Positions 1 through 51,208 of a DNA stretch of 64,000 bases are shown here, one piece after another (position 1 is the stretch's first letter; the number at the start of each line of letters is the position of its first letter). This DNA comes from Candidatus Krumholzibacteriota bacterium (lineage in GTDB: Bacteria > Krumholzibacteriota > Krumholzibacteriia > LZORAL124-64-63), in contig JBDLKA010000006.1 of the NCBI GenBank assembly GCA_039714075.1, positions 16,800 to 80,799 of the forward strand, in the 5' to 3' direction. A program made the position numbers and the translations under genes. The notes beneath the pieces are model-generated. The model saw only the letters and a program-made list of their open reading frames with translations. It searched no databases and was not told the DNA's origin.

Positions 1-324
1 GCCAAGTACTGGGGCCCCGCGGTGGCGTTCGACCCGGCGCGCAGTCCGCTGACCTGGTGCCGCATTCCCCATTTTTTCTACAACTATTATGTTTACCAGT
101 ACGCCACGGCCTATTCGGCGGCGGTGGCGTTGTCGCGTAAGGTGCTGGGCGGAGACGGGAAAGATCGGGAACAATACCTGGACATCCTGCGTTCCGGAAG
201 CAGCAGATATCCCGTGGACACCATCAAGCTCGGCGGGGTGGACATGACGACGTCCCGCCCCATGGAAGACGTCATCGCCCTTTTCGGATCGCTCATCGAC
301 CAGACGGAAGAGCTATTGGACTGA
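1..324 (+). CDS. pepF: Oligoendopeptidase F (M3B peptidase), C-terminal part, truncated by window edge
   Basis: WxRIPHFxYNYYVYQYAT and LxSGSSxYPxDxxKxxGVDMT motifs typical of the PepF C-terminus. Confidence 0.9.
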   Translation, partial: AKYWGPAVAFDPARSPLTWCRIPHFFYNYYVYQYATAYSAAVALSRKVLGGDGKDREQYLDILRSGSSRYPVDTIKLGGVDMTTSRPMEDVIALFGSLIDQTEELLD

Positions 325-7445: not shown

Positions 7446-8648
7446 GTGGACAAGGCCTGCATCACCAAACAGCCCCAGGGGCTGAGCGTCTTCGAAAAAT
7501 ACCTGACCGCCTGGGTGCTGCTGTGCATCGGGGCGGGCATTGTTCTGGGCAAACTCGCGCCCCAGGCGGCGCGCTATCTCGACAGTCTGGCCATCACTTC
7601 GAACGGTGCGCCTATCGTTTCCATCCCCATCGCCGTGTGCCTGTTTTTCATGATGTATCCCATCATGGTCAAGATCGATTTCAGCGAAGTGGTCAAGGCC
7701 GGCAAGTCGGTCAAACCCGTGGGGCTGACCCTGGTCATCAACTGGCTGATCAAACCGTTTACCATGGTGGCGATCTCGGCGTTTTTCCTGGGCGTTCTCT
7801 TCAAGGGATTGATCGGCGCCGAGGCCGTGGATCTGCTCAGGATGCCCCTGGGCCTGGACCTGCCGCTGGGCGCGACCCACGGCGACGGCACCGTGGTGCT
7901 GGTCGACGGCATCAAGATGCTGGAAATCCCCCTGTGGCGCAGCTATCTGGCCGGCTGCATCCTGCTGGGCATCGCGCCCTGCACCGCGATGGTCCTGGTC
8001 TGGGGCTACCTGGCCCGCGGCAACGATGGCCACACGCTGGTCATGGTGGCCATCAATTCGCTGACCATGCTGTTCGTGTTCGGGCCCCTGGGCGGATTCC
8101 TGCTGGGCGTGGGCCGCTTGCCGGTGCCCTGGCAGGCGTTGCTGCTTTCGATCGGGATCTATGTCGCCCTGCCGCTGGTGGCGGGCTTCGTCTCGCGCAA
8201 GGCCATCATCGCGACCAAGGGACAGCAGTGGTTCGAGGAAAAATTCCTGCACGTGCTGACGCCGATCACCATCGTTTCGCTGCTGGCCACGCTGGTGCTG
8301 CTGTTTTCGTTCAAGGGCGAAGTGATCATCGCCAATCCGCTGACGATCCTGTGGATCGCTGTCCCGCTGTTTATCCAGACGGTGTTGATTTTCGGGTTGG
8401 GCTGGTTCCTGTCGCGCCGGCTGGGGCTGACCTACGAAGACGCCGCGCCCACGGCCATGATCGGCGCGAGCAACCATTTCGAGGTGGCCATCGCCACGGC
8501 GGTCATGCTGTTCGGGTTGTCTTCCGGGGCGGCGCTGGCCACGGTGGTCGGGGTGCTGATCGAGGTACCGGTCATGCTGATGCTGGTCAGGATCTGTCTC
8601 AAGACCCGTCATCGTTTCGCTCCCGGCACGTCAGCCGGCGCGAGGTGA
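7446..8648 (+). CDS. acr3: ACR3 family arsenite efflux transporter
   Basis: [59 protein letters not shown]. Confidence 0.95.
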
Positions 8649-9030
8649 GGGATATGATCTCGAGTTGATACTTCTTCGAGCCCCCGCGGGCGGCGTGGCA
8701 AATGTCCACCAGCCGGTCGTCGGGTCGGCTCCACAGGCCTTCCTGATTCAGCCAGGTTTTCGGTGTCCCGCACCAACCGGCGGTCCGCACGATCAGTCCC
8801 CCGTGTTCACTGAATTCATAGCCGGGGCGATTTCCTGTCAGAGCGGCCGCCCGCATGAAGACCTTGGCTCCGTCATCGGTCTCGCCCTCGTAAACCCAGA
8901 CGCCGACCAGGGTCCGTTGCTGGTCGAGCCCGGGGTCGGGTTCCGAGGTGCTGGTGCAGGCGGCCAAAAGCAGGGTCAGCCCCATGGCGAAGGCGATATT
9001 GACGATCGCGAAATGTCCCCTGTCGATCAT
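8599..9030 (-). CDS. Hypothetical lipoprotein (lipocalin-like)
   Basis: RBS GAAGGAAGGG; lipobox LLAAC; LVGVW motif; 3' end overlaps acr3 by 50 nt. Confidence 0.6.
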
Positions 9031-9068
9031 GACCCTTCCTTTCGCTTTCGAAATACCGGCTCCGGTGT

Positions 9069-9431
9069 TCATCGTCTTCGGGGCGATTGTATTGGTGTTC
9101 GTTCCGCAACCCTGACGGGGTTTGATTTGGCCCCGCCCCTGGGCGGTTTGGTCACCCTGTCGCGGGAGGGGCGATGGGGGGCGGGGCTTTTGGTCCGTGG
9201 CGGGTGTTCCCCCGTGGCGGAATCCCTGACCAAGGGTTCCTTTCGAGGGGGCCGTGGCCTGGGACCCGGACAAGGTCCGGTGGGCGGAACCGGGGGCGGC
9301 CAGGGGTCGTGGACGATGACGATTACGGGAGGGTCGTAGCATCCCTGATAGGGAAGTGGTGTGCATCCCGCCATAAGCAGGATTCCAATCGTAAGAAGCG
9401 AGGCGGATGCAATCGTGGTCGATATTTTCAT
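9069..9431 (-). CDS. Proline/arginine-rich hypothetical lipoprotein
   Basis: RBS GGAGG; lipobox LMAGC; low-complexity Pro-rich tail. Confidence 0.55.
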   Translation of the reverse strand: MKISTTIASASLLTIGILLMAGCTPLPYQGCYDPPVIVIVHDPWPPPVPPTGPCPGPRPRPPRKEPLVRDSATGEHPPRTKSPAPHRPSRDRVTKPPRGGAKSNPVRVAERTPIQSPRRR

Positions 9432-9527
9432 CAGAAAACCTCCAATGCTGCTTAATTTAGGTTAATGCATTAATGATGTCAACATTATGTCTTTAAAGTA
9501 AAATAGTGTCAAGTCATTAATTTTGGG

Positions 9528-9556
9528 TTGCCGGTTTCGTGGCTGTATGCTATAAG
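9528..9556 (+). promoter_or_regulatory. Sigma70 promoter for the GntR-like gene
   Basis: TTGCCG-N17-TATAAG with extended TG, in an AT-rich intergenic region. Confidence 0.55.
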
Positions 9557-9605
9557 GTTTTTAAATACAACAATTTGACTGCGGTTTGATTGACAGGAGA
9601 TCGCC

Positions 9606-10562
9606 ATGACACTGGGCCGACCGCACAGCAAGGACTATCCGGAGAAATACAGGGATTCCTTCGCATTGTACCAGTTGACCCAACCCCAGACCCAGGCCGG
9701 CAGCACCCTGGCCGACCAGGTCGCGGCCTATCTCGAATGGGCCATCACCGAAAAGCAGGCCGGTTTCGAGAAGGGTGAGATCATCAGCATCGGGGCCCTG
9801 GCCGAAGGCTTGGGGAAATCCCGCAATACGGCGGCCAAGGGCGTGGAACAGCTGGTGGCCATGGGCATGCTGGCCCGGACCAAGCTGAAATCCCCCTACG
9901 AGATCGTTTCCCGGGTGCCCATCTTCAAGGATTCGAGCCTGGTGGCCGACGAGCAGATTTCCCTGACCATGAAGATGGATTCGGAATCCACCTTCAGCAA
10001 TGTCCGCCGGCTCAGGTTTCCCAACCCGGACGATCCTTTCGCCACGCTTCTGGTCGACGAGCTGGCCGCCAGTAGCGACGGGCTCGTCAAGGATGCGGCG
10101 GCGGGCGACTGGACCGAGGGCGAGGTTCTGTACTACCTGCGCATGCGGTCGATCAAACAGGACGGGGGTTCCATAGGCTACCTGGCCGAGGTCACCTTCC
10201 TAAACCTGACGCCCGACCAGTCCTACCGTTTCGTCGAACGATTCACGCTTCTTCACGACCAGCACGTTTCGCGCTTTTCCATGTATTCGGTGCTGGAGCA
10301 ATGCGGGTTGACGGACCTGCGCGCGGGCCGGACCCAGGTGTCGGTCGGCAATCCGCCCGGTTTCATCGCCCACGAACTGGAGGGGTTCATCAACGGACGC
10401 ACCATCGACATGGCCGATTATTCGGCGGGCAAGACCATGCTCAAATGGAACTACGCCCTGTTCCAGCCCGCGGCCAATCCCATGGCCACTTTTTCGGTTT
10501 GCTTCGTGCGTCCGGACCTGATAGGAATATTCATTCGCAAGCTTGATGTCGAGTTGAAATAG
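9606..10562 (+). CDS. GntR-like winged-helix regulator with divergent C-terminal domain
   Basis: LADQVAAYL...GEIISIGALAEGLGKSRNTAAKGVEQLVAMGML resembles the GntR HTH; RBS AGGAG. Confidence 0.6.
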   Translation: MTLGRPHSKDYPEKYRDSFALYQLTQPQTQAGSTLADQVAAYLEWAITEKQAGFEKGEIISIGALAEGLGKSRNTAAKGVEQLVAMGMLARTKLKSPYEIVSRVPIFKDSSLVADEQISLTMKMDSESTFSNVRRLRFPNPDDPFATLLVDELAASSDGLVKDAAAGDWTEGEVLYYLRMRSIKQDGGSIGYLAEVTFLNLTPDQSYRFVERFTLLHDQHVSRFSMYSVLEQCGLTDLRAGRTQVSVGNPPGFIAHELEGFINGRTIDMADYSAGKTMLKWNYALFQPAANPMATFSVCFVRPDLIGIFIRKLDVELK

Positions 10563-43614: not shown

Positions 43615-43620
43615 GTGCCC

Positions 43621-44274
43621 ATGTCGAATTCCCGAAAAACCAGCAATCTCTTTATGGTGTTGGCTCTTACAGTCATGGTCCTGTGCCTGTCGGCAGGCCC
43701 GGCCACCGCGCGGAAGACCCATGTCCGTGACGGATGGCTGGTCGGCCTATCCTACGGCTACAGCCAGGGCCACATAAGCTGGTCCGGTGAGCCGCAGGGT
43801 TCCTACAAGGGAGGGGCCATTCCCCAGATCCGATTTGGCCGCATGGTCAGCAGCAAACTGGCCCTGGGTTTGGAATACCACGGCTGGATGCTGGAACAGG
43901 GGATCGTGCCGGTGAAGATCCGCAGCAGTCTGCAGAGCGCCACCCTGGCGGCCACCTGGTATCCCGGCGGGGCCGGCTCGGCCTGGGAGGGGTTCTACCT
44001 CCGGGGAGGCGCGGGTTACGCCTGGGCTGGATTATCCTTCGTCGAGATCGATGAAGAACCCCCGGAACACGTGCCCCTGGAGCAGGAACACGGCACGCGC
44101 TACGATGAATCGGGTCTGGGGCTCAATGTCCAGATGGGCTACGAATTCCGGGTCAGCCGGAGTTTCGCGGGGGGGATCGGCATGGGTTTCGATTACCTGT
44201 CGATCGACAAGACCATCTACAAGTCGTCCTACTATTTCCCCGTCACCCTGACCGCGGTCTGGTACTGGGACTGA
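43621..44274 (+). CDS. Small outer-membrane beta-barrel protein
   Basis: Signal peptide; GFYLRGGAGY, GYEFRV, terminal aromatic strand. Confidence 0.75.
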   Translation: MSNSRKTSNLFMVLALTVMVLCLSAGPATARKTHVRDGWLVGLSYGYSQGHISWSGEPQGSYKGGAIPQIRFGRMVSSKLALGLEYHGWMLEQGIVPVKIRSSLQSATLAATWYPGGAGSAWEGFYLRGGAGYAWAGLSFVEIDEEPPEHVPLEQEHGTRYDESGLGLNVQMGYEFRVSRSFAGGIGMGFDYLSIDKTIYKSSYYFPVTLTAVWYWD

Positions 44275-45333: not shown

Positions 45334-46424
45334 AGCAGGCCCTTCCTGGAGTATTTGTGGTACGCGGCGCAGGCGCCTTCGCTGGAGACCATGGTGGCGC
45401 CCAGCGGCGAGGTCGGAGTGCACTCCTTGCCGAAGGCCGGGCACTCGTGCGGCTTCTTCAAACCCTGCAGGATTTCCCCGCTGATGCAGACCTCCGGTTC
45501 CTCGGTCACGATGTCGTCGACGGCGAATTTCTTCTCCGCGTCGAAGGCCGCCAGTTCGTCGCGGATCTTCAAGCCGCTGCCGGGAATGTTGCCGATGCCC
45601 CGCCATTTGCGGTCGCAGACTTCGTACACTTCATCGACCACCGCGCGCGCCGCTGGGTTGCCTTCGGCCCTCACCACGCGCAGATACTGGTTTTCCACGC
45701 CCGGCTCGCCGCTCTCCAGAAGCTGAACGGTTTTCAGGATGCCCTCGAGAATATCCACCGGTTCGAACCCCGTCGGCACGATGGGCACTTTGTATTTAGC
45801 GGCCAGGGGTTCGTATTCCTCCCAACCCATGATGGAACACACGTGGCCCGCGGCGAGGAAACCCTGCACCCGGTTGACGGGCGAAGAAAGAATGGCCTCC
45901 ATGGCCGGCGGCACCAGCACGTGGCTGACGATCTCGGAGAAGTTGGCCAGCCCTTCGGCGGCGGCCTGCTTGACGGCCATGGCGTTGCCCGGCGCGGTGG
46001 TCTCGAAGCCCACCGCGAGAAAAACCACTTCGCGAGCGGGATTTTCCCGGGCCAGTTTCACCGCTTCGAGGGGCGAGTAGACCATGCGGACGTCGCCGCC
46101 CCGCGACTTGACCCGGAACAGGTCGTCACGGCTGCCGGGAACGCGCAGCATGTCGCCGAAGGAAGTGAAGATCACCTCGTCGCGCGCGGCGATGGCCAGC
46201 GCCCGGTCGATGGTTTCCAGAGGCGTGACGCACACCGGGCAGCCGGGGCCGTGGACCAGGGTGATCTCCGGCGGCAGCAACTGATCGATGCCGTACCGCA
46301 TGATCGCATGGGTCTGCCCGCCGCAGATCTCCATGATCACCCAGGGCCGGGTGACGGTCCGCTTGATTTCTCCCAGCAGACCCTTGGCCAGTTCGGGGTC
46401 ACGGAATTCGTCCAGGTATTTCAC
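45330..46424 (-). CDS. hypD: Hydrogenase maturation protein HypD
   Basis: [34 protein letters not shown]. Confidence 0.97.
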
Positions 46425-46681
46425 GTGATGTCCTTTTCCTTGGCGTCTTTTTCCATGATGTCCGCCAGACGGCCCAGTTCACGCAGCGAGGCCTGGGCCT
46501 CTTCCTCGTTGAGCACCTGCAAGGCGAACCCGGCGTGCACGATGACGTAGTTGCCCACTTCCGCTTCGGGAGTGTACGTCAGGCAGGCCTGGTTGCGTGT
46601 GCCGGCATAGTCGATCAGGCCCATGACCAGCCCGTTCTCCTCGAAAGTTTCAAGCACCTTGCCGGGTATGGCCAGACACAT
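46421..46681 (-). CDS. hypC: Hydrogenase assembly chaperone HypC
   Basis: MCLAIPGKV...[10 protein letters not shown]. Confidence 0.96.
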
Positions 46682-46774
46682 GGCCGCTCCATTCTGTTCG
46701 ATGCAGGGATGGTAATCGGCGTCCCGCTTCCTGTATAATAACACCCCGAACCGGTAAATTCAGGAGGATTCGAC

Positions 46775-47602
46775 TTGCGTTATCCATACTTGTTATTGGC
46801 TCTGGCGGCGCTTTGTTTTTGTGTCGGCGCCTGCAGTGACGACGACCCCGCAAGGCCCGGGGAATTCGCGGTCACCATCAAGGTTGCCGATGCCGCCGGC
46901 GACCCCGTGGAGGGGTTGCGGGTGGGCCTGGTCAACGACACTTCGTTTCTCCCGGACGGAGCCCGGGCAGCCAAGGCGGCCACGAGCATCCGGTTTCAGA
47001 TGGCGGTTTCAGCCCGGCTCCTGTTCACCATCGAGGACATCGAAGGCCGGGAAATCCGGATTCTGGTCGACGAGGACCTGAACGCGGGCACCTACACCTT
47101 GATGTGGGATGGTGTGGACAATGAGGGTGTTCACCAGCCTTCGGGCCGTTACACCGCTCACATGGCCGCAACGGAACTCGACACGGGCGACCTGATGTTC
47201 GAAGACAGGACGGACATGCTGCTGGCGATGCTTGATATGTCGCGGGTGCCGGCCGGCTACACCGATGGTAACGGAAAACTGGTGCTGAAAGACAAGAAGC
47301 TGTTTCCCCACCTTTACGACTTGCCGGATATGCAGGCCACCAACGAAAACGGTGAACCCATCGGCCTGATTAATTTGACGCCGTTGATGCGGATCAGCCT
47401 GAAGGACGAAGTCGGCGGCGGGTACATGAACTTCAAGGAAGAGATCATCGCGGGAACGGTTTTGAACGTGGTCTGGGACCCCCGGCTGACAACCGGAACC
47501 GAGTTCCAGGCAACGGATATCGGGGAGCCGGATTATGTCGGGCCCCCGCCTCCGGAAGGAAAATTCGAACTGAGCGGGGTCTACCCCAATCCGTTCAATT
47601 GA
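46775..47602 (+). CDS. Lipoprotein with split FlgD/CTD-like Ig domain
   Basis: RBS AGGAGG, TTG start; lipobox VGAC; GREIRILV...AGTYTLMWDGVDNEG...PSGRY; ends YPNPFN. Confidence 0.8.
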   Translation: MRYPYLLLALAALCFCVGACSDDDPARPGEFAVTIKVADAAGDPVEGLRVGLVNDTSFLPDGARAAKAATSIRFQMAVSARLLFTIEDIEGREIRILVDEDLNAGTYTLMWDGVDNEGVHQPSGRYTAHMAATELDTGDLMFEDRTDMLLAMLDMSRVPAGYTDGNGKLVLKDKKLFPHLYDLPDMQATNENGEPIGLINLTPLMRISLKDEVGGGYMNFKEEIIAGTVLNVVWDPRLTTGTEFQATDIGEPDYVGPPPPEGKFELSGVYPNPFN

Positions 47603-47614
47603 TCCGCCTGGGTG

Positions 47615-47908
47615 TTACTCCCCGGTCGCCTCGTCCAGGATCTGCTGCAGGTCTTCCTGCTTGATCGCCATCATCAGCTCGCCGTCGGGATACTTGACGG
47701 CCATGACGCCCTGCTCGCAGCCGCCCAGGCAACCGCTCTGGAATACGCGGACCCGTCCCTCCAGACCCTTCTCCTTGACCATGTTCTTCAGCTCATCACG
47801 CAGGTCGCGTCCGCCGCGGTCGGCGCAGCAGGGTTTGGGATGCCCGTCGGGCCGCTTGTGGGTGCAGACGAAGATGGCGTTGGGAAAGGGCGCGGGAAAT
47901 TTCAACAT
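47615..47908 (-). CDS. Thioredoxin-like (2Fe-2S) ferredoxin
   Basis: IFVCTHKR...CC...SGCLGGCEQG...YPDG. Confidence 0.85.
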   Translation of the reverse strand: MLKFPAPFPNAIFVCTHKRPDGHPKPCCADRGGRDLRDELKNMVKEKGLEGRVRVFQSGCLGGCEQGVMAVKYPDGELMMAIKQEDLQQILDEATGE

Positions 47909-47963: not shown

Positions 47964-50363
47964 TTATCTCCCACCCGCACCCAGGCGGGCCCGGGCGACC
48001 GCAGCCTGTCCCAAAGCGACCGCGCCGTCGTTGGCCGGGACCCGGGCGGGGCGGTGGACCGTAAAACCGTCTTCACGCAAACTGCGGGTCGTTCCGCTCA
48101 GCAGGATCTCGTTCTGGAATACGCCGCCGCCCAGGACCACGTCCCTGATTCCGGTCCGGGCGGAGGCTTCCCGGGCCGCGGCCGCGAACAGGTCGATGAG
48201 GGTCCGGTGGAACCGTGTGCTGATTTCGGCCGGCGGGGCGCCGGTGCCCAGGGCCTCGACAACCCCCCTTATGATGGGGATCACTGGAACATTGAACCCG
48301 TCAACCTCTTTGGATTCAACGGATTGCCAGGAAGATGCCCCCCGGGGGGCATCCACGGACAAAGGCGCGGCAAAGGGCAAGGCCGCGGCGACTTCGTCAC
48401 AGCTGGTCAGGGCCATCATCTCGATGGCTGCCTGGGCCTCGTAGCGGGCCTCGAGCCAGCCGCCGGTCAGGGCGGCCACGGCGTCGAACAGGCGGCCGCA
48501 GCTGCTGGTCACCGGGGAGTTCACTCCTTTGTCCAGCATCTCCAACACCGCGGCCACGGGCAGATCATCCATCCACGGCAGTTTCGGCAGGTCATCCCCG
48601 TAGGCATGCCGCAGGTAGCTGACGGCCGTGCGCCAGGGTGCGCGGATCGCCGCGTCGCCCCCCGGCAGGGGAACGGGGTCAAGATGGCCCACGCGCCGAA
48701 AATCCGTCAGGTTTCCGGCCAGGATCTCCCCGCCCCAGATGGTGCCGTCGGTCCCGAACCCGGTGCCGTCCATGATCAGGCCGATCACCGCGTCGGTCAG
48801 CCCGTGCTCGGCCATGACGGCAGCCATGTGGGCGTGGTGGTGCTGGACCGGCATCAGGGTCACCCCCGCCTCTGCCTGCTCCTTGGCCCACCGCGTGCTG
48901 AAGTAGCCGGGATGAAGGTCGTGGGCGATCACCCGGGGCTCGCACTCCAGGACATCCTGCAAGGTGGCCACCGTCTCGGTGAAGAATTCGAACGCCTGCA
49001 GATTTTCCAGGTCGCCGATGTGGGGGCTGAGAAAGGCCCGGTCTTCCTTCAACAGGCAGACGGTGTTCTTCAGCTCGGGTCCGGCCGCGAGGATGTCGGG
49101 ACCTTGTCCGCCGCCTTCCAGGTGCACCGGCACCGGCGCGTGGCCGCGGCTGCGCCGGAACAGAAGCGGTTCCCCGTCCAGGTCCTGGATCACCGAATCG
49201 TCCGCCCGGCGTACGATGTCCCGGTCGTGCAGCAGCCAGGAATCGGCGATTCCCTGCAGCCGGGTGGTTGCCTCCTCGTTGCCCAGGCAGATGGGCTCGT
49301 CGCTGGCGTTGCCGCTGGTCATGACCAGGGCCTCGACGCCACGGGCCCGCAGCTTGTCGAATAACAGATGGTGCAGGGGAGTGTACGGCAGCATGACTCC
49401 CAGGCGCCGGTGCCCGGCCGCGACCGAGGGGGCCGCCAGCTGGCCGCCGTCGTTTTTTTCCACCAGCACGATGGGGGCCCGTGCCGAAGTCAGCAGTTCC
49501 TCCGCGGCCTGGTCGAAAACGCCCAGCAACCGCGCGGATTCCAGGTTTCCGGCCATGACCGCCAGGGGCTTGGCTTCGCGGTTCTTGCGCCGGCGCAGGC
49601 GCGCGACGGCTTTTTCATCGTCCGCCCTGACGGCCAGATGGAAACCGCCCAGACCCTTGATCGCCAGGATCCGGCCGACGGCCAGCAGTCCCGCCGCCGC
49701 TTCCAGGGGATCGGTGCGGCCGGGGACAACGCCGCCGTCGTCTTCCAGCCACACGCGTGGCCCGCACTCCGGACAGGCGTTGGGTTGCGCGTGAAAGCGG
49801 CGGTCGCCGGGATCGTCGTATTCGGCCTGGCACACCGGACACATGGTGAACGGGGCCATGGAGGTATGGGGTCGGTCGTAGGGGATGCGGCCGATGATGG
49901 TCCACCGGGGCCCGCAGTTGGTGCAGTTGGTGAAGGAGTATCCGCAACGCCTGTCTTCGGGATCGCGGATTTCGGCCAGGCAGTCGTCGCAGGTGGCCAC
50001 GTCGAAGGGGATCAGGGTGCGGGTTCCGGGCGCGTCGACCGAGGCCCGGATTTCGAATTTACCCGCGAATACACCCGTGAATACACTCGCGAATCCCTCC
50101 GCGCCGGCTTCGGCTTCCATCACCTCAACGGCCACCGCCACGATGTCCGCCAGGGGCGGCGCTTCGGCGGTCAACCGGGCGACGAAGCGGTCCAGCGCCT
50201 CGTCCGGCCCCTGGATTTCGATGACCACGCCTTCGCTGGTGTTGGTGACGAACCCCCCCAACCCCTCGTCGCGCGCCAGGTTGTAGACGAAGGGACGGAA
50301 CCCAACGCCCTGGACGATACCGTCGACCAGCAGCCTGCGACGAAGGAGCGGGGAAGAGGTCAT
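47964..50363 (-). CDS. hypF: Carbamoyltransferase HypF
   Basis: [15 protein letters not shown]...CTNCGPR, CPVC...[21 protein letters not shown]. Confidence 0.97.
50055..50102. repeat. 4 x 12-bp tandem repeat inside hypF
   Basis: GAATTTACCCGC GAATACACCCGT GAATACACTCGC GAATCCCTCCGC, encoding [16 protein letters not shown]. Confidence 0.75.
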
Positions 50364-51208
50364 GATCCGGCCCGGCGACTCCCCAACTGGTCCTTCAACC
50401 AATCGTACCACTGGTCCAGGCCTTCGCCTGTGGTGGCGGACACGCGGTGGAACGCGAGCCGGGGATTCACCGACCGCGCAGCCTGTTCACACTTGTCCAC
50501 GTCGAAGTCCACGTAGGGCAGCAGGTCGATCTTGTTGATCAGGCACAGGTCCGCCGCGGCGAACATGGTGGGGTATTTGAGGGGTTTGTCGTCGCCTTCG
50601 GTGACGCTGATGATCACGACCTTGGCGGCCTCGCCCAGGTCGAACATGGCGGGGCAGACCAGGTTGCCCACGTTTTCGATCATCAGGCACGAGCCGTCGG
50701 CGGGCGCCAGTTCGTCACAGGCCCGCCGGATCATCCGCGCGTCCAGATGGCAACCCTTGCCGGTGTTGACCTGGATCACCGGCGCGCCGGTGGCGGCGAT
50801 GCGGTCCGCGTCGTTCAGCGTCTGCTGGTCGCCTTCGATGACCGCAACGGCGACCTCGTCCTTCAGTGCGGTGATGGTGCGTTCGAGCACCGTCGTTTTA
50901 CCCGACCCCGGCGAGGAAACCAGGTTCAGCGCGAGAATGCCCTTGGCCTCGAACCAGCCGCGGTTCCGTTGGGCCAGCAGGTTGTTCTGCTGCAGGATGT
51001 CGGCTTCGACCTGCAGCGTGCGCGAGGCCCCTTGTTCATGAAGATCAGGGGAATGATCATGATGGTGATGGTTGTGATCGTGGTGATCGTGCGCCTCGCC
51101 GTGATCGTGATGATGATCATGATGATGGTCGTGATGATGCCCGGATTCGCCGGGTTTGCGGAAGGTCACCGCCTCGGGGGGTTGGTTGCAGCCGCAGGTG
51201 TCACACAT
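50360..51208 (-). CDS. hypB: Hydrogenase nickel-insertion GTPase HypB (His-rich)
   Basis: MCDTCGC, poly-His linker, [29 protein letters not shown]. Confidence 0.97.

Follow-up and report, generated by a model that had tools for sequence, protein, structure and literature searches.

Why should a protein end on the residues with which a different kind of domain normally begins? The question is raised by a gene at 46775..47602 (+ strand) in a 64,000-nucleotide stretch of DNA from Candidatus Krumholzibacteriota bacterium (assembly GCA_039714075.1, contig JBDLKA010000006.1), the whole of which we call the window. Its product is a predicted lipoprotein whose chain end reads ...KFELSGVYPNPFN, behind a Pro-rich linker, and this tail looks like the start of the C-terminal domains (CTDs) that act as sorting signals in the T9SS (type IX secretion system). 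The protein is a transthyretin-like domain interrupted by an immunoglobulin-like (Ig) body that lacks its first strand. We propose that the Ig domain is probably discontinuous and circularly permuted, being completed in cis by the terminal strand, and that it belongs to a lipoprotein probably exposed at the cell surface. The parts of the protein that bear on this proposal are the following.

46865..46939, + strand: first part of the transthyretin-like sandwich, aa 31-55, with strands at 33-39 and 48-54 (AlphaFold2 (AF2) secondary structure; VIA ranges 31..235-239 to 5aq0_B, 3e8v_A and transthyretins)

46940..46978, + strand: loop into the Ig body, aa 56-68, with the conserved basic residue K67 and then Ala (family counts)

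46979..47224, + strand: Ig body (aa 69-150), supplying strands 2-7 of a sandwich of the FlgD/T9SS-CTD type (Pfam FlgD_ig; CTD hidden Markov model (HMM) from the protein's own genome; VIA; Atlas)

47237..47482, + strand: remainder of the transthyretin-like sandwich (aa 155-236), in which GxTDxxGxLVL, LFPHLYD and W234 are conserved (alignment, AF2, VIA)

47483..47557, + strand: variable Pro-rich linker, aa 237-261 (predicted local distance difference test score (pLDDT) <50 at aa 240-256)

47558..47599, + strand: relocated strand 1 and turn motif, aa 262-275, GKFELSGVYPNPFN (CTD HMM positions 6-19; AF2 strand 265-270; the chain ends exactly after Asn)

Two profiles place the same gap at the front of the internal body. 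FlgD_ig (PF13860) was the sole Pfam family above its cut-off in this protein, matching aa 70-134 with 41.9 bits (gathering cut-off 27) over profile positions 12-77 of 79; because the match begins at profile position 12, ~11 first FlgD_ig positions are absent before the body. CarboxypepD_reg gave no match in the same scan, which returned five rows at E ≤ 10. The protein's own genome holds 147 frames of at least 80 aa with PNPF, mostly with the motif 78-95 residues before the stop, its normal position in a C-terminal sorting domain, and from 125 distinct canonical CTDs of this genome we built a CTD profile HMM. Positions 21-86 of this HMM matched the body (aa 69-134, 49 bits) and positions 6-19 matched the tail (aa 262-275; 3.7 bits, E 0.22 taken alone). 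The two matches are thus complementary, with position 20 alone missing, which is the Pro that usually follows PNPFN. No match covers positions 87-97, where the chain normally ends, since the last Ig strand runs on into another domain, and an Ig domain that is internal and whose last strand enters its host domain cannot be a normal C-terminal T9SS signal.

To this profile evidence the relatives of the protein add a pattern of alternatives. A word-indexed search gave 78 homologues, mostly of 267-292 aa, and in an alignment of 28 of them (A1) 26 end exactly in PNPFN, with N272, P273, F274 and N275 each at least 90% conserved; this conservation is far beyond chance. An A1 profile run against 1.84 billion cluster representatives matched 363 proteins at E ≤ 1e-30. 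Some of the 150 matches listed are long multi-repeat FlgD_ig proteins that reach their score through 7-24 matched stretches and are not family members, and our classification covers 174 relatives of at most 600 aa. The tail motif stands at the chain end, with no internal motif, in 141 of these 174, and four more end in PNPFD, PNPFH, PNPFR or PNPF. Thirteen carry PxPF[NY]P directly before the body, so that strand 1 is contiguous with it, and have no tail (P0068, P0116, P0122, P0125, P0127-P0130, P0134, P0135, P0140, P0144 and P0145). Unrelated ordinary CTD proteins account for four entries (P0075-P0078), seven are fragment-like or have aberrant ends, and four have neither strand. Only P0079 (523 aa) has both motifs, and it is a fusion of two modules, the first with the internal motif and the second relying on the tail. 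The fusion mirrors, in the same order, a gene pair at locus L025 of another genus, where a tail-less gene with internal strand 1 (7890-8762) and a tail-bearing gene (8762-9619) lie back to back beside hypD. Tail and internal strand 1 are therefore mutually exclusive within one module, which indicates that both fill the same structural site, and we regard this exclusion as the strongest evidence that they do. None of the 174 relatives continues past PNPFN into a full CTD.

Predicted structures agree with this assignment. An AF2 monomer model from the 28-sequence alignment had a mean pLDDT of 84.6 and a predicted TM-score of 0.77; residues 265-270 of the tail were modeled as a strand (pLDDT ~82), and the linker at aa 240-256 fell below a pLDDT of 50. 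In the VIA comparisons, range 31..238 of the model matched 5aq0_B (Z 8.9, root-mean-square deviation 2.6, 78/82 aligned), and 3e8v_A matched the transthyretin-like part (Z 8.6, 82/82 aligned); the match extends over the whole transthyretin-like or carboxypeptidase-regulatory-like domain, although a VIA Z of ~8-9 is common and these matches show fold only. The body matched the CTD of PorU (6za2_B vs 67..153, Z 7.2, 83 aligned, starting at PorU residue 1068) and Vpr (8jmw_A vs 65..150, Z 7.6, starting at Vpr residue 716), and Atlas structure rows aligned aa 64/66-152 to Por_Secre_tail/FlgD_ig clusters. Foldseek ranked structures of the FlgD hook cap highest (7eha_A, E 9.1e-6). For six FlgD entries in the VIA tables, the matched range opens inside the body or slightly ahead of it and reaches residue 269-271, so that the end of the tail, at the least, belongs to the Ig domain as superposed.

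We also modeled the tail-less relative P0122 (13-sequence alignment, pLDDT 80.2), which has an internal strand at aa 78-83. Compared to the window protein, this strand extends the matches to solved CTD-like domains by ~12 residues: PorU 6za2_B was matched from residue 1056 (Z 8.7, 95 aligned) and Vpr 8jmw_A, the top fold match, from residue 705 (Z 9.4). Such longer matches are expected if the contiguous body of the window protein lacks strand 1. Two further computations carry little weight for the arrangement. A dimer prediction, for which aa 21-275 was entered twice along with alignment A1, gave ipSAE values of 0.16 and 0.08 and a mark of 0.42, which counts neither way. Mean-field coevolution over 137 tail-bearing sequences (effective number, Neff, 119) gave top pairs that are gap artefacts; the best tail pairs, several of them in the Ig region (73-267, 70-269 and 75-267), ranked 854th or lower of 36,585, too weak to use.

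Several elements of the initial annotation, which had been made from the sequence alone, are borne out by these results. It had described an Ig body without its first strand, and the CTD HMM and FlgD_ig matches start at positions 21 and 12, respectively. It had taken the terminal YPNPFN to be the displaced strand, as the complementary HMM pieces, the family classification and the comparison with the tail-less model now indicate. The nesting in a transthyretin-like domain appears as the single range 31..238 matched to 5aq0_B, and the basic loop before the Ig body is present as G62-A-R-A-A-K67-A. That annotation would have been undone by homologues running past YPNPFN into a complete CTD, or by models in which the Ig domain is complete without the tail; neither was found, so the tail is not a truncation product, and it is modeled as a strand beside the Ig body.

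The gene itself is real, having a strong ribosome-binding site and many profile-matched relatives. Its own features are given here.

46775..47602, + strand: coding sequence, 275 aa plus a TGA stop (open reading frame (ORF) with a TTG start; full-length against homologues of 267-292 aa)

46762..46767, + strand: Shine-Dalgarno-like AGGAGG, 7 nt 5' of the TTG start (read from the sequence)

46775..46834, + strand: signal peptide with lipobox V-G-A-C, Cys20 being the predicted lipidation site (read from the sequence)

46835..46849, + strand: S-D-D-D-P directly past Cys20, resembling the Bacteroidota lipoprotein export signal

The TTG start is consistent with the MRK... N-termini of homologues. The N-terminus, MRYPYLLLALAALCFCVGAC|SDDDP, has the lipobox VGAC with Cys20, which is at least 90% conserved in alignment A1, and the earlier prediction of a lipoprotein thus appears sound. 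The TGA stop (47600-47602) is preceded by ...GPPPPEGKFELSGVYPNPFN, and it lies 12 nt from the end of a convergent gene (47615..47908), which leaves no space for the remainder of a CTD.

The residues after the lipidated Cys suggest where the protein resides. In the available excerpt of PMC5080379, SDDDD is proposed as a lipoprotein export signal of B. fragilis that worked when transplanted, and the signal is described there as a polar residue followed by at least two acidic residues directly after the lipidated Cys. The C-S-D-D-D-P of the window protein appears to fit this Bacteroidota-type motif. Among the 117 members with a recognizable lipobox, the commonest strings after Cys were SDDD (18) and GDDD (15), and a rough screen of 150 candidate lipoproteins in the protein's own genome found three acidic residues at +3 to +5 in 10, so that starts of this type, prevalent in the family, are uncommon in the genome at large. 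The Cys-SDDD start thus suggests display at the cell surface, on the analogy that the export signal would also operate in this phylum.

How, then, might the parts work together? In the arrangement that we favor, Sec export and processing by signal peptidase II would yield a lipoprotein made of two interlaced beta-sandwich domains. The transthyretin-like domain is broken after its second strand by strands 2-7 of the T9SS-CTD/FlgD-type Ig domain; past the transthyretin-like domain, a flexible Pro-rich linker of at least 23 residues would return strand 1 and the PNPFN turn to the Ig body, where strand 1 would most likely insert into the body of the same chain. The new chain end coincides exactly with the point at which a normal CTD goes on with Pro into strand 2, and the Ig domain would serve as a permanent structural or binding module. 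Our best guess is that the whole forms a stable surface module for binding or scaffolding.

The linker and the paralogues argue for cis closure. From W234 to the last 12 residues, the family linkers have a minimum of 23, a median of 31 and a maximum of 50 residues, with 20% Pro. By strand parity, we infer that ~12-14 extended residues, about one Ig-domain length, would be needed to reach the far end of the Ig body from where the host domain stops, so that a linker of at least 23 residues has slack and closure in cis would be easy. Long hinges generally favor closed monomers over swapped oligomers. In the tail-less paralogues, strand 1 is necessarily in cis. The protein's own genome has one copy of the gene, and 83 of 84 matches there cover the Ig body only, inside large CTD proteins; the count of paralogues that had been asked for thus ends with this copy. 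The initial annotation had named completion in cis and in trans as the two options. Linker length and tail-less paralogues favor the first, which we regard as likely, and the second, for which no support emerged, as improbable.

The tail has been kept, or exchanged for the internal strand, across a sizable family. In P0197 and P0216, which are assigned to candidate division KSB1, an extra domain of ~100 aa stands between the transthyretin-like domain and a tail ending ..QNYPNPFN, so that the tail is kept even when moved further away; the names on the relatives otherwise suggest Krumholzibacteriia. In a FastTree phylogeny of 152 single-module members, computed from columns without the loop and tail, all 13 tail-less members fell in one 23-row cluster (support 97) deep within tail-bearing lineages, and the two types required 4 changes on the tree vs 14.6 in shuffles. 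A single origin of the tail-less form would be compatible with the starred branches of the tree. The tail-bearing order may be ancestral under midpoint rooting without an outgroup. The most canonical tails (..QNYPNPFN) occur in the deepest lineages. A scan of 201 genomes of the phylum, with 12 candidates scored per genome and counts that are therefore lower bounds, gave a match at E ≤ 1e-25 in at least 42 of the 201 genomes, including at least 37 of 86 scored genomes of the protein's own taxonomic family. No family-specific Pfam or NCBIfam model exists. Literature searches found no paper joining circular permutation with type IX secretion CTDs, and a full-text search for YPNPF returned an unrelated mention only.

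The loop before the body is also conserved. Of 137 tail-bearing members, 127 have K or R at the position of K67 (46973-46975), two positions before the first strand of the Ig body, and Ala follows that position in 110. The residue may be a protease site, may pair with the terminal carboxylate in a salt bridge, or may do neither; such a bridge is made doubtful by some tail-less relatives that keep a basic residue there too.

Several observations weigh against completion in cis, or at least against its being the whole story. The match of the tail to the CTD HMM is weak in isolation. The basis for cis is a monomer model, which can only yield cis, together with tables of matched ranges rather than coordinates. 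Four of the 174 relatives (P0073, P0189, P0110 and P0132) have neither internal strand 1 nor a tail, and among them P0110 and P0132 carry two strand-less Ig bodies and zero tails. The fusions P0090, P0099 and P0111 (also L036:8834-10357) have two strand-less bodies and one tail, so that the count of strands to grooves is unbalanced in two-module relatives. Either the strand is not indispensable everywhere or it could be shared in trans. The basic residue at the K67 position is kept in some tail-less relatives as well, and a purely structural permutation does not account for the fixed chain end and the conserved K/R67. Finally, the lipoprotein export signal invoked for surface display is established in Bacteroidota only.

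One alternative draws on several of these points. In it, the tail would be released from the Ig body of its chain, possibly by a protease cutting in the conserved K/R67 loop, and would then either enter another subunit's groove, producing non-covalent chains, or dock onto paralogues that have only a groove; both outcomes would be reminiscent of type V or chaperone-usher pili. We judge such exchange unlikely. The ingredients are suggestive: a lipoprotein, a transthyretin-like fold, a conserved basic loop and a conserved, exact C-terminal strand end, in a family where groove-only relatives and two-body/one-tail fusions occur and where some genomes have tandem paralogues. There are precedents as well. 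In type V pilins, according to the available excerpt of PMC13655056, assembly fails once even the final residue is deleted, and each monomer complements itself until exchange occurs, which parallels both the exact chain end and the modeled state of the window protein, and an isolated RgpB CTD dimerizes via strand swapping in the excerpt of PMC4804311. The Vpr fibril (8jmw) was set aside as a further precedent, since the accessible part of its source describes side-chain interfaces between 'assembly domains' and no strand donation.

The architecture of the window protein fits this alternative poorly. No pilin or fimbrillin family was among the five Pfam rows at E ≤ 10, and there is a single host domain with an insert rather than tandem N- and C-terminal domains. 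K/R67 follows two strands of the host domain, so cleavage at K67 would remove these two strands and not one anchor strand; in the model, no N-terminal strand appears to fill the Ig groove, and there would thus be nothing to remove to free it. The long flexible linker favors cis. The 13 tail-less members, whose strand is internal, could serve as neither donor nor acceptor, and the protein's own genome, with its single copy, offers no partner genes. Type V pilins were absent from the 50-row VIA tables, an absence that does not rule them out. The initial annotation had proposed a polymerizing subunit similar to type V pilins, or a docking adaptor for CTD-bearing cargo. The first finds no support, its domain plan being different and no pilin family matching, and we found no evidence for the second, the window protein being alone in its genome with such a tail. 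There is only a slim chance that the family, exported as self-complemented monomers, forms a surface strand-exchange fibre or docking system outside Bacteroidia, with the T9SS sorting-domain fold in place of the fimbrillin fold; if the tail did act in trans, it would represent a new kind of strand-exchange assembly.

A second alternative treats the tail as a free C-terminal tag that mimics the start of a CTD and is read by a PorV-like shuttle, a PorU sortase or a tail-specific protease, with the six-stranded Ig body complete alone. Machinery that might read such a tag is encoded in the genome, where SprA (472 bits, cut-off 200; C3:64770-68672, a SprA-like frame of 2234 aa) and PorU (467 bits, cut-off 420; C19:26763-30179) mark the translocon and sortase of a T9SS. 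A PorV-like gene adjoins PorU (C19:25950-26597; 96.6 bits, below the cut-off of 250). With SprA and PorU present, the ~125 CTD proteins of this genome are likely T9SS cargo. The junction of linker and strand resembles that of cargo and CTD, relatives without any strand 1 occur, and the tail comes closer to the canonical motif than does the internal strand 1 motif found in tail-less members. An independent tag, however, would not be expected to exclude an internal strand 1, and the counts of 141 with a tail, 13 with an internal strand and 1 with both show that it does; in the AF2 model the tail is a paired strand and not a loose end; and the genome has no further real gene product that ends in a PNPFN-type tail. 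The one candidate, an 89-aa frame on contig C63 ending ..VPNPFQ, is a stop-broken frame with no domain around it, and we attribute it to chance. We therefore see little likelihood that the tail is such a tag.

Returning to completion in cis, the genomic setting raises a third possibility that would bear on function more than on fold. The gene order is hypE, hypD, hypC, then the lipoprotein gene on the opposite strand, then a gene for a 97-aa Cys-rich protein, hypF and hypB. The opposite-strand position splitting the hyp genes, noted at the outset, is plain in the window and recurs in three related loci (L001-L003). A role in [NiFe]-hydrogenase maturation or nickel handling could be read from this location, and in 18 further loci, where neighbor ORFs were chosen by third-position GC in this GC-rich DNA, HypD was among the three nearest ORFs in four, from four other genera (L021, L025, L026 and L035). 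We nonetheless regard such a role as very unlikely. The other 14 of the 18 loci have unrelated neighbors, for example guaA, IMP dehydrogenase, cytochrome bd and PALP enzymes. The lipoprotein gene has the opposite orientation to the hyp genes, and no His/Cys metal site is conserved, with H179 varying in the wider family. All of the hypD-bearing loci come from one taxonomic family, so that inherited gene order suffices and no functional link is needed.

The neighborhood also contains features of interest in themselves. The 97-aa Cys-rich protein (47615-47908, - strand), whose place between the lipoprotein gene and hypF is kept in related loci, has sub-threshold Pfam matches only (DUF1636, 24.2 bits vs 31.6; Suc_Fer-like). 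The longest hypC frame (46421-46744, - strand) begins 21 codons upstream of the conserved terminus, with HupF_HypC matching from residue 22; translation probably begins instead at the ATG at 46681, so that ~93 bp of divergent intergenic DNA would separate hypC from the lipoprotein gene. HypB (cobW/HypB/UreG domain; 50360-51208, - strand) has a long His-/Asp-rich N-terminal stretch, presumably for nickel storage. A protein of ~215 aa resembling an outer-membrane beta-barrel (43615-44274, + strand; OMP_b-brl and Autotransporter matched below threshold) retains its position next to hypE in related genomes (L001:3860-4501; L003:905-1558). In two other genera, a Peptidase_M64 (IgA peptidase-like) gene lies inside the same hyp block beside the lipoprotein gene (L021:6371-7876; L035:9267-10751).

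The remaining explanation, a truncated or frameshifted T9SS cargo gene whose CTD is cut after the first strand, might be thought of because the tail has just the appearance of a CTD's beginning and the end of a convergent gene lies 12 nt beyond the stop, but it is refuted by the family-wide conservation of the chain end, with 141 of 174 relatives on many contigs and in many genera stopping at the same residue and none going on to a CTD, by lengths that cluster at 267-292 aa and by an internal body that lacks exactly the piece the tail supplies, and it has practically no chance of being correct.

In this family, the Ig fold that acts as the T9SS sorting signal has found a second use, as a lipoprotein module that is permanent, internal and reordered. 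The family comes with a natural control, in that paralogues have the strand either just in front of the body or at the very C-terminus, with no single module having it in both places, and it is a clean system for studying how well a beta-sandwich tolerates relocation of a strand. It bears as well on how a domain whose two chain termini emerge from opposite ends of the sandwich can be nested. Our analysis thus defines an uncharacterized family in a host lineage whose large set of T9SS cargo we did not find in print; a full-text literature search found no paper on type IX secretion in Krumholzibacteriota.

Comparison with known systems shows where this family stands. Type V pilins (FimA/Mfa1), as described in the excerpt of PMC13655056, share with the window protein a lipoprotein precursor (here predicted from VGAC and the conserved Cys20), a transthyretin-like sandwich, a self-complementing C-terminal strand, a critical C-terminus and a basic residue in an early loop. 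They differ in having tandem N- and C-terminal transthyretin-like domains, compared to one host domain (31..238) with an Ig insert, and they belong to the Bacteroidia, whereas the window protein comes from a Krumholzibacteria-type lineage. FlgD (3osv, 3c12, 7eha and 7bhq) likewise has an Ig domain of the FlgD_ig family, but its host domain is a tudor domain and not a transthyretin-like one, and the window protein is a lipoprotein. The window protein had no Pfam rows for the FlgD N-terminal domain or FLgD_tudor and reached at most 29.9 bits against the NCBIfam FlgD equivalogs (cut-offs 197-383; best 29.9 vs 383), and no flagellar genes were identified among the neighbors examined, which are hyp genes.

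The closest likeness in fold is to the T9SS type A CTDs (RgpB and PorU 6za2), which share the seven-strand Ig-like sandwich and the motifs PNPFN(P)-xTxIxF, GRxVRxL, AGxHxxxWDG and SGxY. Those domains are terminal and contiguous, whereas the body of the window protein occupies aa 69-150 of 275, strand 1 (aa 262-275) follows strand 7 only after ~112 further residues, the last strand leads on into another domain and the chain carries a lipoprotein signal; because its Ig domain is internal and its signal is that of a lipoprotein, the window protein is not an ordinary T9SS cargo. The same two building blocks occur in small proteins of the same phylum that combine CarboxypepD_reg with a CTD (an Atlas cluster with CarboxypepD_reg in 97%, FlgD_ig in 77% and Por_Secre_tail in 65%; feature score 0.87, a lead only). 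In those proteins the domains stand in series with a normal terminal CTD, whereas in the window protein they are interlaced, and a serial protein of this kind is a plausible ancestor of the family. The window protein thus lies outside type V pilins, FlgD proper and T9SS cargo, and it represents an undescribed family of lipoproteins.

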